Below, piece by piece: positions 2,298 to 10,663 of a DNA stretch of 64,000 bases. This DNA comes from Patescibacteria group bacterium (GTDB lineage: Bacteria; Patescibacteriota; Minisyncoccia; Phycocordibacterales; UBA9973): positions 8,430 to 72,429 of the forward strand of contig JAGWUB010000002.1 of assembly GCA_028868715.1 (NCBI GenBank), written 5' to 3'. The notes under the pieces are model-generated. The model did no database searches, was not told the origin of the DNA, and saw only the letters and a list, made by a program, of their open reading frames with translations. Each line of letters opens with the position of its first letter. Within the stretch, counting starts at the first letter, position 1. The position numbers were made by a program, and so were the translations under genes.

Positions 2298-3752
2298 ATG
2301 GAACCGCAGATGGGAAAACTTATAGTGGCTAGGCATGGAGAGTCCGAGTGGAACAAAGCCAATTTATTTACCGGTAAAACTGATGTACATTTGAGCACGA
2401 ATGGATTTAAAGCATCAGAAGAATTGGGTGCTCTAATCAAAGATATTGAAATACATAAAGTTTTTGCTTCCACTCAAGCACGCACTATAGAGACAGAGGT
2501 CTGTATGATGAGTGGAGGAAAACAATGTTGTTCTGAAAATATACACTATTCCAGTGCGCTAAATGAAAGAGATTATGGAGATTATACTGGAAAAAATAAG
2601 CTAGAAAAAGAACATGAATTAGGGAAAGAGGAGTCTGATACACTTCGCCGTGCTTGGAATTATCCCATACCCAACGGGGAAACTTTAAAAATGGTATACG
2701 AGCGGTCAGTTCCTTTTTTTCTGCAAGAAATTTTACCAGTTTTAAGAAATAGCGAGAACGTGCTCATTGTTTCGCACGGAAATACCGTGCGATCTCTTTT
2801 GAAATACATAGAAAAAATTTCAGATATAGATATAGAGAAAGTAGAAATGCCATTTAATGAAATTTTTATTTACGACCTCGATCACGACGGACATTTTATA
2901 AATAAAGAAATAAGGAAAATAGGTGATAAAGTGAAGCCTGTGCAAGAAAGCAGAGTAAGGTCACTGACACAAATTGTAGCTACCATCGGTCCAGCTTCTT
3001 CTGAATACGTTGTGTTAAATGAAATGGTAAAAGCAGGTATGGATATGGCTAGACTAAATTTTTTCTGGCCGGAACCAGAAGAAATAAAAAAAAGAATTGG
3101 ACTGATAAAAAAAACTGCCAAAGAGAACAACACTAATATTAAAATATTAGTAGATTTACCAGGGCCTAGACTACAAGATAAAGACGGGCATATATATGAC
3201 ATCAATGCTTCTAAAGCTATAACCGCCAAAGACAAGGAATTAATAAAATTTGCGATAGAAAATGATGTAGATTACTTATCGGTATCCTTTGTTGGAAATA
3301 AACAAGATATTTTGGACTGTAGGGAGGAAATAAAAAAATGGAATGGTAGACAAAAAATCATCGCTAAAATTGAACGAGCAGTGGCTATAGAAAACATAGA
3401 TGAAATAATAGCAAATGCAGATGCAATCATGATAGCCAGAGGGGATTTGGGAAACGAAATACCCATTGAGAAAATACCATTTGCCCAAGATGATATTATT
3501 AAAAAATGTAAACAAGTTGGTAAACCAGTGATCACCGCAACCCAAATGCTCTATTCTATGAAAGACAACCCATCTCCGACTCGTGCTGAAGCCACCGACG
3601 TGGTCAATGCTGTCATGGAAGGTTCAGATGCTGTTATGCTCTCTGAGGAAACATCTATTGGAAAATATCCCATCAGGGCAGTGTATGTGATGGAGCACTT
3701 GGCGCTTGAAGCAGAATTACATTTAAAAAATCCTAAGTTCAACACTTTTTAA
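2298..3752 (+). CDS. Fusion protein: N-terminal 2,3-BPG-dependent phosphoglycerate mutase (histidine-phosphatase, ~aa 1-205) joined to a minimal pyruvate-kinase-like A-domain barrel (~aa 215-484) that lacks the B (lid) and C domains
   Basis: The N-terminal part has RHGESEWN, LNERDYGDYTG and SHGNTVRSL, the dPGM hallmarks. The C-terminal part has IVATIGPAS, MIARGDLGNEIP, ITATQMLYSM and PTRAEATDVVNAV, matching PK motifs. The NFSHG and DTKGPEIRT motifs are degenerate (ARLNFFWPE and VDLPGPRLQ), and there is no ~100-aa B-domain insertion or C-terminal domain. Confidence 0.7.
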   Translation: MEPQMGKLIVARHGESEWNKANLFTGKTDVHLSTNGFKASEELGALIKDIEIHKVFASTQARTIETEVCMMSGGKQCCSENIHYSSALNERDYGDYTGKNKLEKEHELGKEESDTLRRAWNYPIPNGETLKMVYERSVPFFLQEILPVLRNSENVLIVSHGNTVRSLLKYIEKISDIDIEKVEMPFNEIFIYDLDHDGHFINKEIRKIGDKVKPVQESRVRSLTQIVATIGPASSEYVVLNEMVKAGMDMARLNFFWPEPEEIKKRIGLIKKTAKENNTNIKILVDLPGPRLQDKDGHIYDINASKAITAKDKELIKFAIENDVDYLSVSFVGNKQDILDCREEIKKWNGRQKIIAKIERAVAIENIDEIIANADAIMIARGDLGNEIPIEKIPFAQDDIIKKCKQVGKPVITATQMLYSMKDNPSPTRAEATDVVNAVMEGSDAVMLSEETSIGKYPIRAVYVMEHLALEAELHLKNPKFNTF

Positions 3753-3754
3753 TT

Positions 3755-5002
3755 ATGGCTATTATTTCAAAACTAGAAGCCAAAGAAATTTTAGATTCTA
3801 GGGGGAACCCCACCGTCCAAGCCTCCTGTCGGCTACAAGATGGAACAATAGAAATTGCCTCAGTGCCATCTGGAGTAAGTACCGGTAAATATGAAGCATT
3901 TGAGCTTAGAGATAATGATATGAATAGATATAGAGGCAAAGGGGTAGAGAGGGCTGTGGGAAACATAAATGGAGAAATTTCAGAATTTTTAGTTGGAAAA
4001 GAATTGGACCAGAATACTCTAGATGAGGCTCTGATAAATTTAGATGGTACAAAAAATAAACAAAGACTTGGGGCAAATGCCATACTGGCAGTTTCGCTGG
4101 CTTTTGCGAGAGCCTCAGCTAAAGAGAAGGGAATACCACTTTTTAAGTACCTAGCAAATATATATTTTAAAAATGAAAATGAAAGAATGTATAAAATTCC
4201 ACAACCAGTTTTCAATACCATAGAGGGTGGTAAGCATTCAGATAGCGGACTATCTTTTCAGGAGTTTTTATTAGTTCCACAAGAATTTGAAAATATAAAA
4301 ATAAAATTAGAAGTAATAAAAAAGATATTTATATCCTTAAAAGATCTACTGGTAAAAGATGGGTATGAAGTAAATCTAGGTGATGAAGGTGGATTTTCTC
4401 CAAAGCTTTCATCTGATGAGAAAGTTTTAGAATATTTCAATATGGCTATTTCTTCTGCTGGCTATAATGCAGATCAAGTAAAAATTGGACTAGATGTTGC
4501 TGCCACGACTTTTTTCAAAGATGGCCTTTATCTTATAAAAGAGAATAAATTAAATACGCGAGAAATGATAGAAATGTATAAAAAATTATGTGAGCAATAC
4601 AAAATAATTTCAATTGAAGATGGGCTCAACGAAGAAGATTTTGCTGGGTTTGCGGAAATGAATAAAGCATTAGGTCAGATGATAAATATTGTGGGAGACG
4701 ATATTACTGTCACCAACATTGATCTAATTAAAAACGCAATAAATAATAAATCCATCAACACTCTCCTCATCAAACCAAATCAAATTGGCACACTTTCGGA
4801 AACTATGCAGGCCATCAGATTGGCAAAAGAAAATAATATTAAAACTTTCATATCTCACAGAGGTGGCGAGACAGAGGATACTTTTGTTGCTGATTTGGCA
4901 GTCGCCGTGGGCGCTGATTTTATAAAGGCCGGTGGCCCAACTAAGCCGGAGCGAATAGTAAAATATCATAGACTGATAGAGATAGAAGAGCTTATTAAAT
5001 GA
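3755..5002 (+). CDS. eno: Enolase (phosphopyruvate hydratase)
   Basis: AIISKLEAKEILDSRGNPTVQA…SVPSGVSTGKYEAFELRD is the canonical enolase N-terminus, and the C-terminal barrel motifs (IKPNQIGTLSET, SHRGGETED) are present. Starts 3 nt after the PGM::PK ORF. Confidence 0.9.
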   Translation: MAIISKLEAKEILDSRGNPTVQASCRLQDGTIEIASVPSGVSTGKYEAFELRDNDMNRYRGKGVERAVGNINGEISEFLVGKELDQNTLDEALINLDGTKNKQRLGANAILAVSLAFARASAKEKGIPLFKYLANIYFKNENERMYKIPQPVFNTIEGGKHSDSGLSFQEFLLVPQEFENIKIKLEVIKKIFISLKDLLVKDGYEVNLGDEGGFSPKLSSDEKVLEYFNMAISSAGYNADQVKIGLDVAATTFFKDGLYLIKENKLNTREMIEMYKKLCEQYKIISIEDGLNEEDFAGFAEMNKALGQMINIVGDDITVTNIDLIKNAINNKSINTLLIKPNQIGTLSETMQAIRLAKENNIKTFISHRGGETEDTFVADLAVAVGADFIKAGGPTKPERIVKYHRLIEIEELIK

Positions 5003-5033
5003 CTTTTTAAGCCTATTCTGTTATATTCTCTCT

Positions 5034-5855
5034 ATGTCTAAATTATCTGTGGGAATTGTTGGCTTGCCAAACGTTGGAAAATCTACGCTTTTTAATGCGC
5101 TTACTAAAAAGGGTGTGCCAGCAGAAAATTATCCTTTTTGTACCATTGATCCATCAGTAGGAATTGTTCCGGTTCCAGATGAAAGGCTAGATAAGCTTTC
5201 AGCTATGAGTAAGTCCAAGAAAACCATACCGGCGGTGGTAGAGTTTGTGGATATCGCAGGTCTGGTTAAAGGAGCTTCTACTGGAGCTGGACTCGGTAAT
5301 AAATTTTTGTCTCACATACGTGAGGTGGACGCTATTATTGAAGTGGTCCGAATTTTTGAGGATAAAGACATGATTCATGTGCACGATAAAGTGGACCCAC
5401 TTTTTGATATTGAAGTTATAAATTTTGAATTAGAACAAGCTGGAATTAAAAAGCCAACACTATATGTATTAAATACATCAGAAGCATCTGACAATGTAAA
5501 AAAAGATTTTATCTCAAGTCTTCCTGGGCCTTACTTAGAAGTAGACCCGATTTTTGGTACAGGATTAGATAATTTAATTAAATCTAGTTACGATTTATTG
5601 AACTTGATTACCTTCTTTACCACTGGAGAGGATGAGTCTAGAGCCTGGACAACCAAGCGGGACGCTAAAGCTCCAGAAGCAGGACGATCTATTCACAACG
5701 ATTTTAAGGAAAAATTTATTCGCGCGGAAGTAATAAACTGGAAAGATTTACTTGATTGTGGGTCTTATGCAGTTGCTCGATCAAAAGGACTAGTACGCAC
5801 CGAAGGCAAGGAGTACGTCGTACAAGACGGCGATGTTATCGAGTTTTTGGTGTAG
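5034..5855 (+). CDS. ychF: Ribosome-binding ATPase YchF/OLA1-like (Obg family), short form lacking the central helical insertion
   Basis: GIVGLPNVGKSTLFNALT P-loop, DIAGLVKGAS G3 region, and a C-terminal TGS-like segment (EGKEYVVQDGDVIEFLV). At 273 aa it is ~90 aa shorter than E. coli YchF. Confidence 0.7.
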   Translation: MSKLSVGIVGLPNVGKSTLFNALTKKGVPAENYPFCTIDPSVGIVPVPDERLDKLSAMSKSKKTIPAVVEFVDIAGLVKGASTGAGLGNKFLSHIREVDAIIEVVRIFEDKDMIHVHDKVDPLFDIEVINFELEQAGIKKPTLYVLNTSEASDNVKKDFISSLPGPYLEVDPIFGTGLDNLIKSSYDLLNLITFFTTGEDESRAWTTKRDAKAPEAGRSIHNDFKEKFIRAEVINWKDLLDCGSYAVARSKGLVRTEGKEYVVQDGDVIEFLV

Positions 5856-6378
5856 CTGGTTTCTTCTTCTTATATTTTTTTACTTTCACTGCCACCTTCT
5901 TTATTTTTGGTTGAGCCTTTACTTTTATTGGCTTCTTCAAGCCCTCAATCTCATGCATGAGTAATGTGAGTGTGTTTTCTATATTTTTAAATTTCTCATT
6001 TTCTATTTGTTCATGTCTTTCTTCTTCTTCATCCTCAGAAATTTCTTCCACGTCCTCCTGAATTTCATCCACATCTTTTTGAATTTCATCCACGTCCTCC
6101 TGAATTTCATCCACATCTTTTTGAATTTCTTCAATGTCCTCTGACACTTCCTCCAGTTCCTCACTTTGTCTATTCACAGTGATTTGAATAAAAATTGAAA
6201 GGTAAATCGCTTCCAAGGATACTGCTGTTGTCAAAATTAATAAAATGCTTGAGGTATCAAAACCCAAAAATCGCAATCCAAAAATACCTATAAAAAAGAT
6301 TGTGTGAATTATTAAAGACCCAGTTGACCCGATAGCTGCCGTTAAGTTTTTAGAAAAATCATTAAATTTATCATTCAT
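5836..6378 (-). CDS. Membrane-anchored protein with an acidic 7-aa tandem repeat (DVDEIQE/K x5) and a lysine-rich basic C-terminal tail
   Basis: N-terminal hydrophobic helices, the repeat (EEIQKDVDEIQEDVDEIQKDVDEIQEDVEE) encoded by 21-nt DNA tandem repeats at ~6034-6153, and the C-terminal KVKAQPKIKKVAVKVKKYKKKKPATPKTR. The 3' end overlaps ychF by 20 nt on the opposite strand. Confidence 0.5.
   Translation of the reverse strand: MNDKFNDFSKNLTAAIGSTGSLIIHTIFFIGIFGLRFLGFDTSSILLILTTAVSLEAIYLSIFIQITVNRQSEELEEVSEDIEEIQKDVDEIQEDVDEIQKDVDEIQEDVEEISEDEEEERHEQIENEKFKNIENTLTLLMHEIEGLKKPIKVKAQPKIKKVAVKVKKYKKKKPATPKTR
6034..6153 (-). repeat. Near-perfect 21-nt tandem repeats (~5.5 copies) inside the coding region
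   Basis: cacgtcctcctgaatttcatc alternates with cacatctttttgaatttcatc, directly visible in the sequence. Confidence 0.85.
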
Positions 6379-6425
6379 AATTAGTCTTATTTATTATCTA
6401 ATCCTTATATGATATACTTTTTTAT

Positions 6426-6977
6426 ATGAATGCACAATCAAAAGTTCTTAAATGGTCCCTTATTATTGGTATTGTTATCGTGATTAACTTGTTTTTTAAT
6501 TACTCTCTTTCTTTGGTTTATAAACATCCGGTATACGAAAACTTTTGCCCGAATACAGCTCAAACCATCGAGACTATTAACACAAGAGAGCAGTGTATTC
6601 AGATAGGTGGACAGTGGAATGGCAATGTCTATGCGGTGCCTGCGCCTGTACCAGTAGAAAAAATAGCACAACCACAAGGTTATTGTGACCAGCAATTTAC
6701 TTGCCGAAATACTTTCGAAGCTTCACAAAAAGTATATGATAGAAATGTATTTATTACTCTGGTTCTCTTGGGTGCTATTTGTGTGGCGGTTGGAACTTTT
6801 CTCGGAGTAAATATGCTGATCAGTATTGCACTGTCTATCGCTGGGGTTTTATCATTTGTTATTGCCTCAATGCGATATTGGAGCTCTGCTGATGATCTAA
6901 TAAAAGTTGTTATTTTAGGAATTGCACTCGCTATTTTAGTTTGGGTGGCTATGAAAAAATTTAAAGATAATAAGTAA
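6426..6977 (+). CDS. Hypothetical membrane protein (N-terminal TM, Cys-containing extracytoplasmic segment, C-terminal TM helices)
   Basis: Hydrophobic segments at both ends and a coherent ORF with no antisense alternative. No family recognised. Confidence 0.4.
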   Translation: MNAQSKVLKWSLIIGIVIVINLFFNYSLSLVYKHPVYENFCPNTAQTIETINTREQCIQIGGQWNGNVYAVPAPVPVEKIAQPQGYCDQQFTCRNTFEASQKVYDRNVFITLVLLGAICVAVGTFLGVNMLISIALSIAGVLSFVIASMRYWSSADDLIKVVILGIALAILVWVAMKKFKDNK

Positions 6978-6981
6978 AAAT

Positions 6982-7851
6982 ATGTTTGAAAATTGGAAAA
7001 TATTTGAAGGTACTTACGTCAACCCCATCGTCCTAAAAGACAGAATGACAACGATAGAGGAGGTAAGACAAAGCTCCAAGGACAAAAATAAGGAAGTGAA
7101 TGAAGCTATTTTGGAGCGTTTGAAAATTATTGAAGTAAAATATTTATCAAAAGACAAAAAAGTTTATTTAGGGCAGATAGTCATCGATAAAGATTTGGCT
7201 GACAATATCTTGAAATTGTTTGATTATATTGAAAAAATGAATAACAACACTGATACAGCAGATGATAAGAAATTTTTTATAGAAAAAATAATACCGATAT
7301 CAAATGAAAAATATAAAGACAACGATGCTCTGTCTATGGAAGACAACAATACCTCTGCATTTAATTACAGATTAATAGAAGGAAAAAACAGATTATCTTC
7401 ACACGCCTTTGGTTTTTCTATAGATATAAACCCCAAGGATAATCCGGTTATGATTAATGGAGTAGTAAGTCAACCAAGAAATGGCAAGTATGATGAAAAA
7501 AATTCAAATACCTTAACCCCGCATCATAAGGTGGTAGAATTTTTAAAACAACGAGGATTTGAATGGGGTGGAGACTGGAAGTCTTCAAAAGATTACCATC
7601 ATTTTCAAAAGATCCTTCCCACCAAAGAGTACCTAAAGAATTATATTGATAACGCAATTGATAACACAGAAGAAAATATTTTAGATACACTTGGAAAGTT
7701 ATTTATCAATAGTTACAAATTGGAACATTTTCAGGCACTACTCAATTTTGTTAAAAATGATGTTATTATCAGCAAAATTGGCAAAGAACAATACTTGAAA
7801 TTTTTTAATCTTTTAAACGAGCAAATACATAATGCACAAATACGATCATAA
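6982..7851 (+). CDS. Hypothetical protein with a C-terminal LAS-type (peptidase M15 / VanY-like) metallopeptidase signature
   Basis: SSHAFGFSIDINP (H…D zinc-ligand motif) and GFEWGGDWKSSKDYHHFQ (WGG-W…D-HF motif of M15 D-Ala-D-Ala / L-Ala-D-Glu peptidases). The call rests on motifs only. Confidence 0.4.
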   Translation: MFENWKIFEGTYVNPIVLKDRMTTIEEVRQSSKDKNKEVNEAILERLKIIEVKYLSKDKKVYLGQIVIDKDLADNILKLFDYIEKMNNNTDTADDKKFFIEKIIPISNEKYKDNDALSMEDNNTSAFNYRLIEGKNRLSSHAFGFSIDINPKDNPVMINGVVSQPRNGKYDEKNSNTLTPHHKVVEFLKQRGFEWGGDWKSSKDYHHFQKILPTKEYLKNYIDNAIDNTEENILDTLGKLFINSYKLEHFQALLNFVKNDVIISKIGKEQYLKFFNLLNEQIHNAQIRS

Positions 7852-10663
7852 GAAAATTGAAAAAAAATGGCAAAATATTTGGGAGAAAAAGGGAGTTTAT
7901 CATGCCGATGATAAATCTAAGAAACCCAAGTATTATACTTTAATTGAATTCCCATATCCTTCCGGTGATGGCCTTCATGTAGGACACCCTAGGCCGTACA
8001 TAGGTATGGATGTTATTTCTAGAAAAAGACGAATGCAAGGGTACAACGTACTTTACCCGATAGGTTGGGACGCCTTTGGATTGCCGACAGAAAACTATGC
8101 CATAAAGACTGGTAAGGATCCCAGAGTGGTTACCAAGAAAAATACTGACACTTTTAGAAAACAAATAAAGTCTTTAGGGGTTTCCTTTGATTGGTCACGA
8201 GAAATTAATACCACTGACCCAAAATATTATAAATGGACCCAATGGATATTTTTACAATTTTATAAAAAGGGCTTAGCTTATAAGGCTAAGATGACCATTA
8301 ATTGGTGCCCAAAGGATAAAATAGGTTTAGCCAACGAAGAAGTGATAAATGGGTGTTGCGAGAGGTGTGGCACACCAGTTGAAAAGCGAGAGAAAGAACA
8401 GTGGATGCTGGGCATTACTAAATATGCTGAGAGATTGGATAAAGATTTAGATACCGTTGATTATTTACCACAAATAAAAATAGGGCAGAGGAATTGGATA
8501 GGGAAGTCTGTGGGCGCAGAGATAGAATTTAAAATATCTTCAACCAACGAAAGTATAAAAGTATTCACCACTCGACCAGACACTATTTTCGGCGCTACAT
8601 TTATTGCGTTAGCTCCTGAGGTGGCAAAGAAAATAACAGGTAAAGATTTTGGCATAAAAGTAGATACCGATCGAGAGAATAAAGAAAAAATTGGTATAGA
8701 TACTGGGTTGAAGGCTAAAAATCCTGCGAGCGGTGAACAAATACCCGTATTCGTAGTCAATTATGTATCCGCAGATTATGGCACAGGAGCTATAATGGGA
8801 GTACCGGCGCACGATGAAAGAGATTTTGAATTTGCGAAAAAATATAATTTACCAATTATAGATGTGGTAATACCCATTAGAGTTGATAATACCAATCCTC
8901 ATATTTCTGGTAAAAAAATTGTTGAAAGAAAAGCTGTTCAAGCAATAATTAGAAATCCAAAAAATGGAAAAATTCTTTGTTTAAATTGGAAGGCTCATCC
9001 ATGGACTACGTTTGTGGTTGGTGGAGTGGAAAAAGGAGAAGATATTCTAGAAGCCGCAAGACGAGAAGTGTTAGAAGAAACAGGTTATAAAAATATAAAA
9101 TTTATAAGAGTATTAGGTGGCCAAGTAAGAAGTGAGTTTTTTGCAGCACATAAAGACGAAAATAGAGTTGCATATTTTAATGCTATTTTATTTGAACTAG
9201 AGAACGAAGATAGGATCGAAGTTTCAAGAGAAGAAATTGAAAAACATGAAGTTGTATGGAAGGACCCAAAAGATATTCGTTCTGATACTATGCAATGTGG
9301 AGAGCTAGATATTTGGCTTGAAAGACTAAAAAATGAAAACGCTGTTAATGCAGAGAATGGTATTCTAACTAACTCTGGAAAATTTAATGGCATGGACAGT
9401 GAAAATGCTAAGAAGGAAATCATTAAATTTGTTGGTGTAGAGGAAAAAACAACCTTCAAGCTTCGGGATTGGATATTCTCTAGACAGAGGTACTGGGGTG
9501 AACCAATACCTATTATTCATTGTAGTAAATGTGGTATGGTTCCAGTTCCTGAAAAAGATTTGCCCGTAGAGCTTCCTAAGGTAAAAAATTATCAGCCGAC
9601 GGATAGTGGCGAATCACCACTGGCCAATATTTCTAAATGGGTCAATGTAAAATGTCCAAAGTGTAAAGGGGGAGCATTGAGGGAGACAGATACTATGCCA
9701 AACTGGGCAGGCTCAAGCTGGTATTACCTTAGATATACAGACCCTAAAAATAAAAATGCATTTGCTGACAAGAAAAATTTGAAATACTGGACACCAGTAG
9801 ATTGGTACAACGGTGGCAACGAACACACCACGCTTCATCTTTTATATTCTCGTTTTTGGCACAAATTTCTGTATGATTTAAAGCTCGTACCAACTTCCGA
9901 GCCGTACATGAAGCGTACTTCTCATGGCATGATTCTCGGTGAAGGGGGAGTAAAGATGTCTAAATCAGTCGGCAACGTCATCAACCCAAACGAAATCGTA
10001 AAAATATATGGAGCCGATACAATGCGAGTTTACGAAATGTTTATGGGGCCGTTCGATCAGTCTGTGGCTTGGAGTGACGAAGCGATCATAGGTCCACGAA
10101 GATTTTTAGAAAAAGTTTGGAAGTTGGGGGAGCTGGTAGAGAAAAATTCAGTCCGTGTCGGAGCCCGCTTGCGGGTAAAGCGGCGTGATTTTTCTCTACC
10201 AGATTCCACTATAGCTAAACTCTTAAACAAGACAATAAAAAAAGTTTCTGAAGATATAGAAGCTATGCATTTCAATACCGCCATTTCTGCAATGATGATA
10301 CTTGCTACAGAAATGCAAAAATCAGAATCTGTTTCAGAAAAAGATTTCAAAATGTTTTTACAAATTTTAGCCCCATTCGCACCACACATTACCGAAGATC
10401 TCTGGCAGACACTCGGAGAGAAAAAATCTATCGATCTTTCCGTTTGGCCCAAGTGGGATGAAAATTTAATTCAAGACGAAGAGGTGACCATAATAGTTCA
10501 AGTAAATGGCAAAGTACGCGGACAATTTAAAGCTTCTGTAGACATAAGTGAGGCTGAAGCTAAAAGCAAAGCAGAGAATTTACCAGAAGTTAGGAAATGG
10601 ATAACCACAGGTGTCAAGAGGTTTGTGTTTATCCCCAGAAAACTTATTAACATTGTAGTTTAG
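7832..10663 (+). CDS. leuS: Leucyl-tRNA synthetase carrying an inserted NUDIX hydrolase domain (~aa 365-485)
   Basis: HIGH (DGLHVGHPRPY) and KMSKS (VKMSKSVGNV) motifs, the TTRPDTIFGATF and GTGAIMGVPAHDERD editing-domain motifs, and RDWIFSRQRYWGEPIP. Between LPIIDVV and FKLRDW lies a ~145-aa extra segment containing a perfect Nudix box, GGVEKGEDILEAARREVLEETGY. Confidence 0.9.
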   Translation: MHKYDHKKIEKKWQNIWEKKGVYHADDKSKKPKYYTLIEFPYPSGDGLHVGHPRPYIGMDVISRKRRMQGYNVLYPIGWDAFGLPTENYAIKTGKDPRVVTKKNTDTFRKQIKSLGVSFDWSREINTTDPKYYKWTQWIFLQFYKKGLAYKAKMTINWCPKDKIGLANEEVINGCCERCGTPVEKREKEQWMLGITKYAERLDKDLDTVDYLPQIKIGQRNWIGKSVGAEIEFKISSTNESIKVFTTRPDTIFGATFIALAPEVAKKITGKDFGIKVDTDRENKEKIGIDTGLKAKNPASGEQIPVFVVNYVSADYGTGAIMGVPAHDERDFEFAKKYNLPIIDVVIPIRVDNTNPHISGKKIVERKAVQAIIRNPKNGKILCLNWKAHPWTTFVVGGVEKGEDILEAARREVLEETGYKNIKFIRVLGGQVRSEFFAAHKDENRVAYFNAILFELENEDRIEVSREEIEKHEVVWKDPKDIRSDTMQCGELDIWLERLKNENAVNAENGILTNSGKFNGMDSENAKKEIIKFVGVEEKTTFKLRDWIFSRQRYWGEPIPIIHCSKCGMVPVPEKDLPVELPKVKNYQPTDSGESPLANISKWVNVKCPKCKGGALRETDTMPNWAGSSWYYLRYTDPKNKNAFADKKNLKYWTPVDWYNGGNEHTTLHLLYSRFWHKFLYDLKLVPTSEPYMKRTSHGMILGEGGVKMSKSVGNVINPNEIVKIYGADTMRVYEMFMGPFDQSVAWSDEAIIGPRRFLEKVWKLGELVEKNSVRVGARLRVKRRDFSLPDSTIAKLLNKTIKKVSEDIEAMHFNTAISAMMILATEMQKSESVSEKDFKMFLQILAPFAPHITEDLWQTLGEKKSIDLSVWPKWDENLIQDEEVTIIVQVNGKVRGQFKASVDISEAEAKSKAENLPEVRKWITTGVKRFVFIPRKLINIVV

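Follow-up and report, generated by a model that had tools for sequence, protein, structure and literature searches.

A Nudix hydrolase domain inserted in the CP1 editing domain of leucyl-tRNA synthetase in Patescibacteria

In a stretch of 64,000 nucleotides (nt) from a Patescibacteria group bacterium (GenBank assembly GCA_028868715.1, contig JAGWUB010000002.1, positions 8,430 to 72,429 of the forward strand; hereafter the window), leuS encodes a housekeeping leucyl-tRNA synthetase (LeuRS) in which the equivalent of a whole Nudix gene of ~160 amino acids (aa) is inserted in frame in a surface loop of the CP1 editing domain. Across much of the Patescibacteria, LeuRS usually carries this insert, and the Nudix family to which it belongs is repeatedly associated with aminoacyl-tRNA synthetases in this group. 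From sequence comparison and structure prediction together, we regard it as close to certain that the insertion is real, folded and, by prediction, catalytically competent.

A Nudix domain inside LeuRS had been proposed at positions 8925-9290 in an earlier note on this DNA, which was made from the letters alone. The Pfam hidden Markov model (HMM) for NUDIX, PF00293, indeed matched the window LeuRS far above its cutoff (Table 1), and it matched the insert alone with E = 4e-16 and 59.7 bits. The proposed interval covers the Pfam core; its start is out of frame, with the codon boundary at 8927, and the whole module extends over 8870-9349. In the alignment with Thermus thermophilus LeuRS, aa 1-346 of the window protein corresponded to Thermus residues 1-362 and aa 507 onward to Thermus residues 378 onward. 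Thus, 160 residues stand in place of a 15-residue Thermus loop (residues 363-377), a net gain of ~145 aa that agrees with the number of extra residues given earlier, as does the position of the insert between ...KYNLPIIDVV and the return to the core. Within the CP1 model PF13603, which matched the window LeuRS with E = 1.1e-53, the insert falls between profile positions ~147 and 148 of 185. The Nudix module occupies an internal surface loop of CP1 and, contrary to what had been supposed, neither replaces nor extends the C-terminal end of that domain, the last part of which (aa 507-540) follows intact.

The Nudix box of the insert, GGVEKGEDILEAARREVLEETGY, follows the pattern GX5EX7REUXEEXGU up to its last position, where Tyr is found instead of Ile, Leu or Val; this substitution is conserved in the family (94 Tyr and 7 Phe among 102 insert-bearing homologues). 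In the same 102 homologues, E412, E416 and G418 are invariant, E415 is present in 101 and R411 in 93, and position 403 is Glu in 90 and Gln in 11. Further residues that are conserved specifically in this family are R366, W386-K387, K441, N444, R445 and E468-x3-H472-x3-W476. The ExxEExG core is intact in 470 of 488 domains of the family, irrespective of where these domains are located.

The AlphaFold2 model of the window LeuRS, built with 104 homologues, had a mean predicted local distance difference test (pLDDT) score of 84.8, and the insert was its best-predicted part (pLDDT 90-96). In the model the insert forms a separate, confidently folded lobe, as the independent-lobe check proposed earlier had envisaged, with a beta-sheet sandwich and the box on helix 405-417, which is the alpha/beta/alpha arrangement of a Nudix fold. 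The rest of the model superposes on the LeuRS of E. coli, Neisseria and Thermus with template modeling (TM) scores, TMt, of 0.73-0.80. The TMq of ~0.7 obtained when the whole model was compared with LeuRS structures is that expected if the Nudix lobe stays unaligned.

Two other accounts of the extra segment were rejected. Its junctions (...DVV/IPIRV... and ...NAVN/AENG...) carry neither Cys/Ser/Thr nor the His-Asn signature of an intein or other self-splicing element, no Hint or intein Pfam model matched, and the predicted fold is that of a Nudix domain. Given that these hallmarks are missing, the inserted segment should remain in the mature protein. An assembly or frameshift artefact was rejected as well, since the identical protein is found on independent contigs and the reading frame is kept in hundreds of homologues from independent metagenome-assembled genomes.

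The protein that carries the insert scored 971 bits against the equivalog HMM TIGR00396 (leuS_bact; cutoff 548.4 bits), which places it among the bacterial LeuRS. The HIGH, KMSKS, TTRPDT and GTGAIMGVPAHDERD motifs and the Nudix box that had been read from the sequence were all confirmed, at the coordinates given in Table 1. HIGH, KMSKS, TTRPDT and HDERD are invariant or nearly so among the LeuRS homologues, and the two editing-site motifs are at least 90-100% conserved in the 102 insert-bearing ones. Judged by these motifs, the synthetic and editing sites are retained by the window LeuRS, and the suggestion that editing may be affected by the insertion is left without support because the motifs for both activities are so well conserved. 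It should be noted that the leucine-specific domain of Thermus LeuRS (residues ~593-636), also present in E. coli, is absent from the window LeuRS (window 9900-9970, aa ~700-712), in which, in the Thermus alignment, GMILGEGG leads directly into VKMSKS. Rfam and tRNA scans of the window yielded nothing bearing on leuS.

Table 1. Features of leuS and of the inserted Nudix module in the window (T. thermophilus numbering is indicated by Tth).
Feature	Window coordinates	Strand	Residues	Basis
leuS open reading frame (ORF), bacterial-type LeuRS with insertion	7832..10663	+	943 aa	ORF; TIGR00396; AlphaFold2 superposition
HIGH motif HVGH	7976..7987	+	49-52	H49, G51 and H52 invariant (104 homologues)
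CP1 editing domain before insertion	8489..8869	+	220-346	PF13603, aa 220-354 = profile positions 1-147 of 185
Editing-site threonine-rich motif TTRPDT	8567..8584	+	246-251	at least 90% conserved in homologues
Editing-site motif GTGAIMGVPAHDERD	8780..8824	+	317-331	H327, D328, R330 and D331 invariant
Complete inserted Nudix module	8870..9349	+	347-506	Tth alignment; full-length match to free-standing P0002, P0004, P0005 and P0007; pLDDT 90-96; empty site in P0094 and P0103
Pfam NUDIX match (PF00293)	8927..9277	+	366-482	E = 8e-15; 55.5 bits; cutoff 21.1
Nudix box GGVEKGEDILEAARREVLEETGY	9020..9088	+	397-419	G397-x5-E403-x7-R411-E412-V413-x-E415-E416-x-G418-Y419
Family-specific motif HKDENR	9149..9166	+	440-445	K441 invariant; N444 and R445 near-invariant
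CP1 editing domain after insertion	9350..9451	+	507-540	aligns to Tth 378 onward; pLDDT 80-92
KMSKS motif	9953..9967	+	708-712	conserved in homologues
Anticodon-binding domain (PF08264)	10202..10540	+	791-903	Pfam

The insertion is not a rarity of one genome, as the earlier note could be read to imply. A search with the insert alone returned only 8 matches, a number set by the word-index limit, and rarity was rejected in view of the spread found by full-length, profile and genome scans. In the full-length search, PF00293 was present in 118 of the 120 best LeuRS clusters (57-75% identity), whose sources were Patescibacteria, Paceibacterota or Nomurabacteria and which are annotated simply as leucine-tRNA ligase, UniRef entries included. 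A scan of one genome per GTDB species detected the Nudix family in at least 271 genomes. Among the best 80 of these loci, ~75 had the Nudix domain embedded in leuS, and their labels were mostly Patescibacteria or candidate phyla (Paceibacterota, Nomura-, Taylor-, Kaiser-, Adler-, Moran-, Falkow- and Berkelbacteria, and others); the few loci under other labels are probably mis-binned. Finally, a search of 1.84 billion cluster representatives identified at least 150 clusters at E<=1e-30 and at least 431 at E<=1e-10.

Two of the leuS loci have peculiarities of their own. The LeuRS-with-Nudix gene at ~4460-7830 of the JGI contig Ga0643550_000282 (L001) contains 6 in-frame TGA codons, aligning to G, G, P, A and T, while 5 of its 6 CGA codons and both of its CGG codons align with Trp of the window protein. 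A genetic code in which UGA specifies Gly and CGA/CGG specify Trp has been reported for Absconditabacterales. The codon usage of this gene fits that code, with UGA as a sense codon and CGA/CGG apparently read as Trp. P0006 is one of the fragments into which gene callers split this gene. The contig JAHJJO010000063.1 (L033) is a near-perfect palindrome with the same leuS on both arms, which is probably an assembly artefact.

Comparisons of the Nudix domain with the enzymes around it indicate that the domain is exchanged between lineages as a cassette. Across ~117 homologues, the identity of the core to that of the window protein and the identity of the Nudix domain were negatively correlated (r = -0.66): the homologues with the most similar cores (85-91%) had Nudix domains that were 37-51% identical to that of the window, and those with the most similar Nudix domains (70-74%) had cores that were 73-77% identical. 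The two overall closest LeuRS, P0094 and P0103, have no insert at all. The region encoding P0094 is collinear with the window (YchF…leuS-TPR protein-MurJ-ABC-LepA) and presents a clean, in-frame empty site, the short loop of which reads …VVSHIDGKAEVFVGEGY…; no flanking repeats or target-site duplications were seen when the insertion boundaries were compared with this site. The G+C content at third codon positions (GC3) is 0.15 in the insert (8870-9349) and 0.35 in the rest of leuS (7832-10660), and it is lower in the Nudix segment than in the host gene in 59 of 72 other loci (mean difference -0.064, Wilcoxon p = 1.4e-8). The low GC3 of the insert could reflect donor bias, recent transfer or relaxed codon selection. 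We infer that leuS alleles, with their highly conserved flanks, recombined with one another and that the domain was gained, lost and replaced in this way.

The cassette is not confined to one loop. At least four insertion sites were found in LeuRS (window numbering): at ~aa 207-222 before QRNWIGKS, in the hairpin at aa 235-241, at aa 346/507, which is the site of the window and of the majority, and in the zinc region at ~aa 564-616. The number of Nudix copies per LeuRS ranges from one to three, and the Pfam matches confirm both the multiple sites and the copy numbers: NUDIX precedes CP1 in L036, and L007 and L025 have two and three copies, respectively. The copies at minority sites are 60-74% identical to majority-site copies of other LeuRS, so that the domain must have moved between LeuRS loops repeatedly.

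More than 100 clusters consist of free-standing members of the family, ~160-aa proteins that align end to end with the insert at 40-53% identity. In two related genomes of one lineage, a free-standing Nudix gene immediately precedes leuS, and the YchF…leuS gene order around it matches that of the window; one of these copies precedes an insert-less LeuRS, and the other lies 2 nt from a LeuRS that also carries the insert. Another free-standing copy overlaps the 3' end of pth, and the other free-standing genes surveyed had neighbours of unrelated function. Three free-standing members of 157-168 aa (P0146, P0175 and P0180) are named leuS in NCBI records, presumably from their best match to an insert-bearing LeuRS, and this error is propagating.

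In addition to LeuRS, prolyl-tRNA synthetase (ProRS) is a carrier: in P0347, a Nudix domain of the family is found between the anticodon-binding and C-terminal domains of ProRS. P0321 and P0354 are fusions of the Nudix domain to a lone ProRS-like anticodon-binding domain (37% identical over that domain in P0321), and P0354 is encoded by a separate gene 1.3 kb from an intact proS. The Nudix box of this ProRS-linked subclade is partly degenerate, with R411 and E403 lost. The low-GC contigs of the subclade and a prefoldin-like neighbour suggest DPANN archaea, in which the family is thus probably present too; a metagenome scan for the subclade returned 4 loci, none of which adjoined proS. For a census of carriers, we classified 142 newly returned 50%-identity representatives of the 150 listed at E<=1e-30. 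The only non-Nudix carriers identified among them were LeuRS, in the large majority, and ProRS or its anticodon-binding domain. The remainder were stand-alone or tandem Nudix proteins, together with three proteins that had unidentified N-terminal regions, and no ribosomal protein, elongation factor or polymerase was a carrier among the 142.

The LeuRS of related Patescibacteria also carry other inserted enzymes (L025 4329-9434, L051, L008 3888-7325 and L015 3345-6983; P0027, P0082, P0095 and P0042). Among these are Ser_hydrolase/alpha-beta-hydrolase domains (PF06821) that have a GHSLG motif and lie either in the zinc region or in the CP1 hairpin. Other inserts are a phosphatase-like HAD_2 domain and endonuclease-like domains of the DUF559/MTES_1575 type, and one LeuRS of ~1700 aa combines 3 Nudix domains with an alpha/beta-hydrolase and a HAD domain. 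In proteins of ~280-390 aa (L082 4638-5507; P0376, P0375, P0369, P0238 and P0225), a C-terminal CP1-like piece with the degenerate catalytic motif VPLHVKEH in place of VPAHDERD is followed by a Nudix domain. Such proteins may represent pieces of recoded genes, or they may be CP1-remnant-Nudix proteins that stand alone; the L082 gene has no LeuRS core within 5 kb.

Two genes of the window outside leuS also deserve mention. The YchF-type GTPase encoded upstream of leuS is short, with 271-273 aa (window 5034-5855, forward strand; L095 1360-2175; L096 3661-4479) compared with 365-366 aa in L002 and on the P0149 contig, and it keeps its G domain and C-terminal domain. Just upstream of the enolase gene, a 484-aa ORF (window 2298-3752, forward strand) joins a histidine-phosphatase domain of the phosphoglycerate-mutase type (aa 8-201) to the C-terminal half of a pyruvate kinase barrel (PF00224 profile positions 172-328), which is an unusual glycolytic fusion or a rearrangement.

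By three kinds of comparison, the nearest characterised relatives of the inserted domain are RppH, the Nudix hydrolases of diadenosine polyphosphates (ApnA) and decapping or other RNA 5'-end enzymes, as far as predicted fold and sequence profiles can tell. In Foldseek comparisons, RppH gave a TMq of 0.71-0.72 and the Aquifex diadenosine tetraphosphate (Ap4A) hydrolase a TMt of 0.80-0.82, and the top matches of a profile search against PDB were decapping effectors, the lupin and Aquifex Ap4A hydrolases, NudC and RppH. The likeness to RppH is at the level of the fold only, as the best of the PRK00714 RppH models scored 26 bits against a cutoff of 116. The Nudix diadenosine polyphosphate hydrolases are marked by a Tyr 16-18 residues downstream of the Nudix box; the residues at +17 and +18 in this family, F436 (86 Phe and 14 Tyr in the 104-sequence alignment) and F437 (50 Phe and 50 Tyr), are aromatic and not consistently Tyr. 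The hallmark of ADP-ribose pyrophosphatases (ADPRases) is a Pro 15-16 residues downstream of the box. An ADPRase was rejected, given that these positions are S434 and E435 in the window protein and have no Pro in the aligned homologues, that the ADPRase model TIGR00052 scored 18.6 bits against a cutoff of 79.55, and that superposition was poor (Foldseek TM to T. thermophilus ADPRase of ~0.5).

Aminoacyl-tRNA synthetases are the classical source of Ap4A, which arises from aminoacyl-adenylate plus ATP. We tentatively propose that the LeuRS part of the bifunctional protein would charge and proofread tRNA-Leu as usual, and that the tethered Nudix lobe would hydrolyse a nucleoside-polyphosphate compound arising at or near synthetase-tRNA complexes, with Ap4A-type dinucleoside polyphosphates, free or as RNA 5' caps or polyphosphate ends, as the leading candidate substrates. 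A synthetase-tethered hydrolase of this type is preferred because the family tracks two different synthetases, and the candidate substrates are those suggested by the chemistry of RppH and the Nudix Ap4A hydrolases, to which the domain is closest among characterised enzymes. Its parts do not stand equally firm. That the Nudix domain is functionally coupled to a synthetase or to tRNA, and is not a random passenger, seems to us probable; the proposal as a whole, a tethered nucleoside-polyphosphate hydrolase probably acting on Ap4A-type by-products or caps, has in our estimate somewhat less than an even chance, and an ApnA- or cap-type substrate in particular is a possibility that we hold with still more reserve. 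Among the substrates proposed, an Ap4A- or RppH-like one best fits the comparisons of the predicted fold. Hydrolysis of an aminoacyl-adenylate, which had also been suggested, would be atypical chemistry for a Nudix enzyme and has no support.

Several observations weigh against this proposal. Ap4A is diffusible, so that tethering is not obviously needed, and the alpha/beta-hydrolase and HAD inserts in some LeuRS fit LeuRS as a permissive carrier. Most free-standing members of the family are not beside any synthetase gene, and one is in a "house-cleaning" gene cluster. The Nudix segment is the least conserved region of the protein, with a mean identity to the window of 45% compared with 81-83% for the catalytic core. 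In addition, the ranking among Nudix enzymes is shallow: none of the named NCBIfam Nudix subfamily models reached its cutoff, and the best PDB sequence match was an ADP-ribose pyrophosphatase (1V8I, E = 4e-5).

If LeuRS were a mere carrier, the Nudix domain would have a general nucleotide-sanitising or salvage role unrelated to leucylation, for which a large, essential and constitutively expressed protein with permissive surface loops would serve well in gene-poor genomes. We consider such a passenger unlikely, although it deserves real weight: the same LeuRS proteins have also acquired Ser_hydrolase (PF06821), HAD and DUF559 domains, any of several loops is used, copy number varies from 1 to 3, and a close syntenic relative has neither the insert nor a free-standing copy within 6 kb. 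The free-standing P0146 is encoded among another Nudix protein, an HD nucleotidase, an IMPase, a glyoxalase and an aldo-keto reductase, and the window itself contains another unusual fusion, that of phosphoglycerate-mutase-like and pyruvate kinase parts. Against a passenger speak the restriction of the identified non-Nudix carriers to LeuRS and ProRS or its anticodon-binding domain, the operon-like adjacency of free-standing copies to leuS, and the repeated re-insertion into LeuRS at new sites, which suggests selection for a Nudix-LeuRS partnership. Such a partnership might also be directed at the tRNA. An RppH-like Nudix domain could act on a tRNA recruited by LeuRS, ProRS or the isolated anticodon-binding domain, and take off either a 5' tri- or diphosphate or nucleotide cap, or else an adduct (pyrophosphate or nucleotide) carried by the acceptor end. 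Consistent with this are the stand-alone fusion of a ProRS-like anticodon-binding domain and a Nudix domain encoded beside an intact proS, the insertion in ProRS directly after the anticodon-binding domain, the overlap of a free-standing gene with pth, whose product acts at the tRNA acceptor end, and the rank of E. coli RppH among the best structural matches. Moreover, the LeuRS insertion sites fall within CP1 or at its margin in three cases and in the zinc-binding region in the remaining one, and we take these modules to surround the tRNA acceptor end in the published LeuRS-tRNA complexes. However, the fusions to an anticodon-binding domain are few and their box is partly degenerate (R411 and E403 lost), four insertion sites and a variable copy number speak against a precise geometry relative to the tRNA end, the family members outside LeuRS are mostly plain ~160-aa proteins, and we know of no reason why tRNA-Leu in particular should need processing of its 5' or 3' end. 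A tRNA-directed role is rather unlikely in our judgement.

The turnover of the cassette resembles that of conflict systems in its exchange between lineages, relocation between sites, presence or absence in syntenic relatives, lower GC3 than the host gene and variable copy number. It might thus be an in-cis module for immunity or repair that, together with the alpha/beta-hydrolase and HAD inserts found elsewhere, destroys a nucleotide-type toxin directed at LeuRS or tRNA or reverses a nucleotide-type modification of them, with aminoacyl-adenylate mimics and ADP-ribosyl or pyrophosphoryl adducts as example targets. A small-molecule-modifying domain on a synthetase has a catalogued precedent in IleRS with GNAT (NF040702). 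The case is, however, entirely circumstantial, and no toxin or partner gene was seen in the neighbourhoods of the window and free-standing loci. Nudix enzymes are not known to attack the linkages, phosphoramidate or sulfamoyl, that occur in the known antibiotics against synthetases, and we rate an immunity or repair function of the insert as quite improbable. A broader version is improbable as well. In it, the Nudix domain and, in some lineages, the alpha/beta-hydrolase and HAD domains would be hydrolase cassettes that spread by horizontal exchange, colonise synthetases in ultra-small symbionts (the Patescibacteria and probably DPANN) and work there as built-in modules for repair or immunity. 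If true, such cassettes would free the tRNA or the synthetase of caps or nucleotide-type adducts, or would destroy nucleotide toxins directed at synthetases, and they would serve in conflict among episymbionts, hosts and phages as an unrecognised layer of translation protection or quality control. Least probable is a Nudix fold without catalysis that has a structural, regulatory or ligand-sensing function, like that of NrtR-type regulators. Degenerate boxes do occur in some subclades: E415 is replaced by Gln in the one marked "HWSEDKY", and the ProRS-linked one lacks R411 and E403. The catalytic glutamates are nevertheless intact in the window protein and in 470 of the 488 family domains, which is not expected of a purely structural module.

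As the earlier note had surmised, no description of a Nudix domain in LeuRS or any other synthetase was found in the full-text literature, with most subscription journals outside the coverage. The insert-bearing LeuRS sequences themselves are already public with their Pfam annotation, including in UniRef, and have passed unremarked. The architecture is new and widespread, with unusual mobility, and is built from known kinds of parts, a bacterial LeuRS and the Nudix superfamily. Known hydrolases of the RppH and Nudix Ap4A/ApnA kinds (RppH of E. coli, aq_158 of Aquifex, Ndx1 of T. thermophilus, human NUDT2 and the lupin and C. elegans Ap4A hydrolases) are only 16-25% identical to the window Nudix domain, which has its own invariant motifs and is embedded in a synthetase instead of being free. 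A closer parallel in architecture is the bifunctional NadM-Nudix type, in which a HIGH-motif nucleotidyltransferase is combined with a Nudix hydrolase (PMC7824862); according to a reference cited in that paper, class I synthetases are in the same HIGH superfamily as NadM-type nucleotidyltransferases. In both cases, an adenylyl-transferring enzyme of the HIGH superfamily is covalently joined to a Nudix domain that could hydrolyse its adenylylated product or a relative of it. In NadM-Nudix, however, the Nudix domain is fused to one end of a small NMN adenylyltransferase and has NAD or ADP-ribose as its substrate, whereas that of the window is an internal insertion in the LeuRS editing domain, belongs to a different Nudix family and lacks the ADPRase hallmarks.

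Synthetases with accessory catalytic modules (CP1 of LeuRS, IleRS and ValRS, INS of ProRS, N2 of ThrRS, and IleRS-GNAT, NF040702) likewise have an extra module built in, and CP1 itself is an ancient inserted hydrolase. To our knowledge, these modules hydrolyse aminoacyl esters or acetylate, and none of them is a Nudix pyrophosphohydrolase. In contrast to them, the Nudix domain described here has been gained, lost and moved between loops on short evolutionary timescales. The LeuRS of Mycoplasma mobile, which has no CP1 (PDB 3ZIU) and was among the PDB matches to the window LeuRS, also shows that the CP1 region tolerates large natural remodelling; that enzyme represents a deletion with loss of editing, whereas the window LeuRS has added a foreign enzyme and kept its editing motifs.

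The domain architectures of synthetases have been catalogued for 25 years, and their added domains have revealed editing, signalling and resistance functions. Here, across a large part of a major bacterial radiation, the proofreading domain of an essential synthetase houses a pyrophosphohydrolase, which belongs to a different enzyme class. That this domain recurs at different sites, in multiple copies and also in ProRS, a second synthetase, points to a link of this Nudix family with aminoacylation, tRNA ends or Ap4A-type alarmones. The gain, loss and relocation of the cassette represent an unusually clear case of domain-level mobility within a core translation gene, and the free-standing members already mislabelled leuS are a warning for annotation. 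Identification of the substrate would give the first functional handle on this Nudix family, and the architecture also bears on how gene-poor symbionts pack functions into essential proteins.

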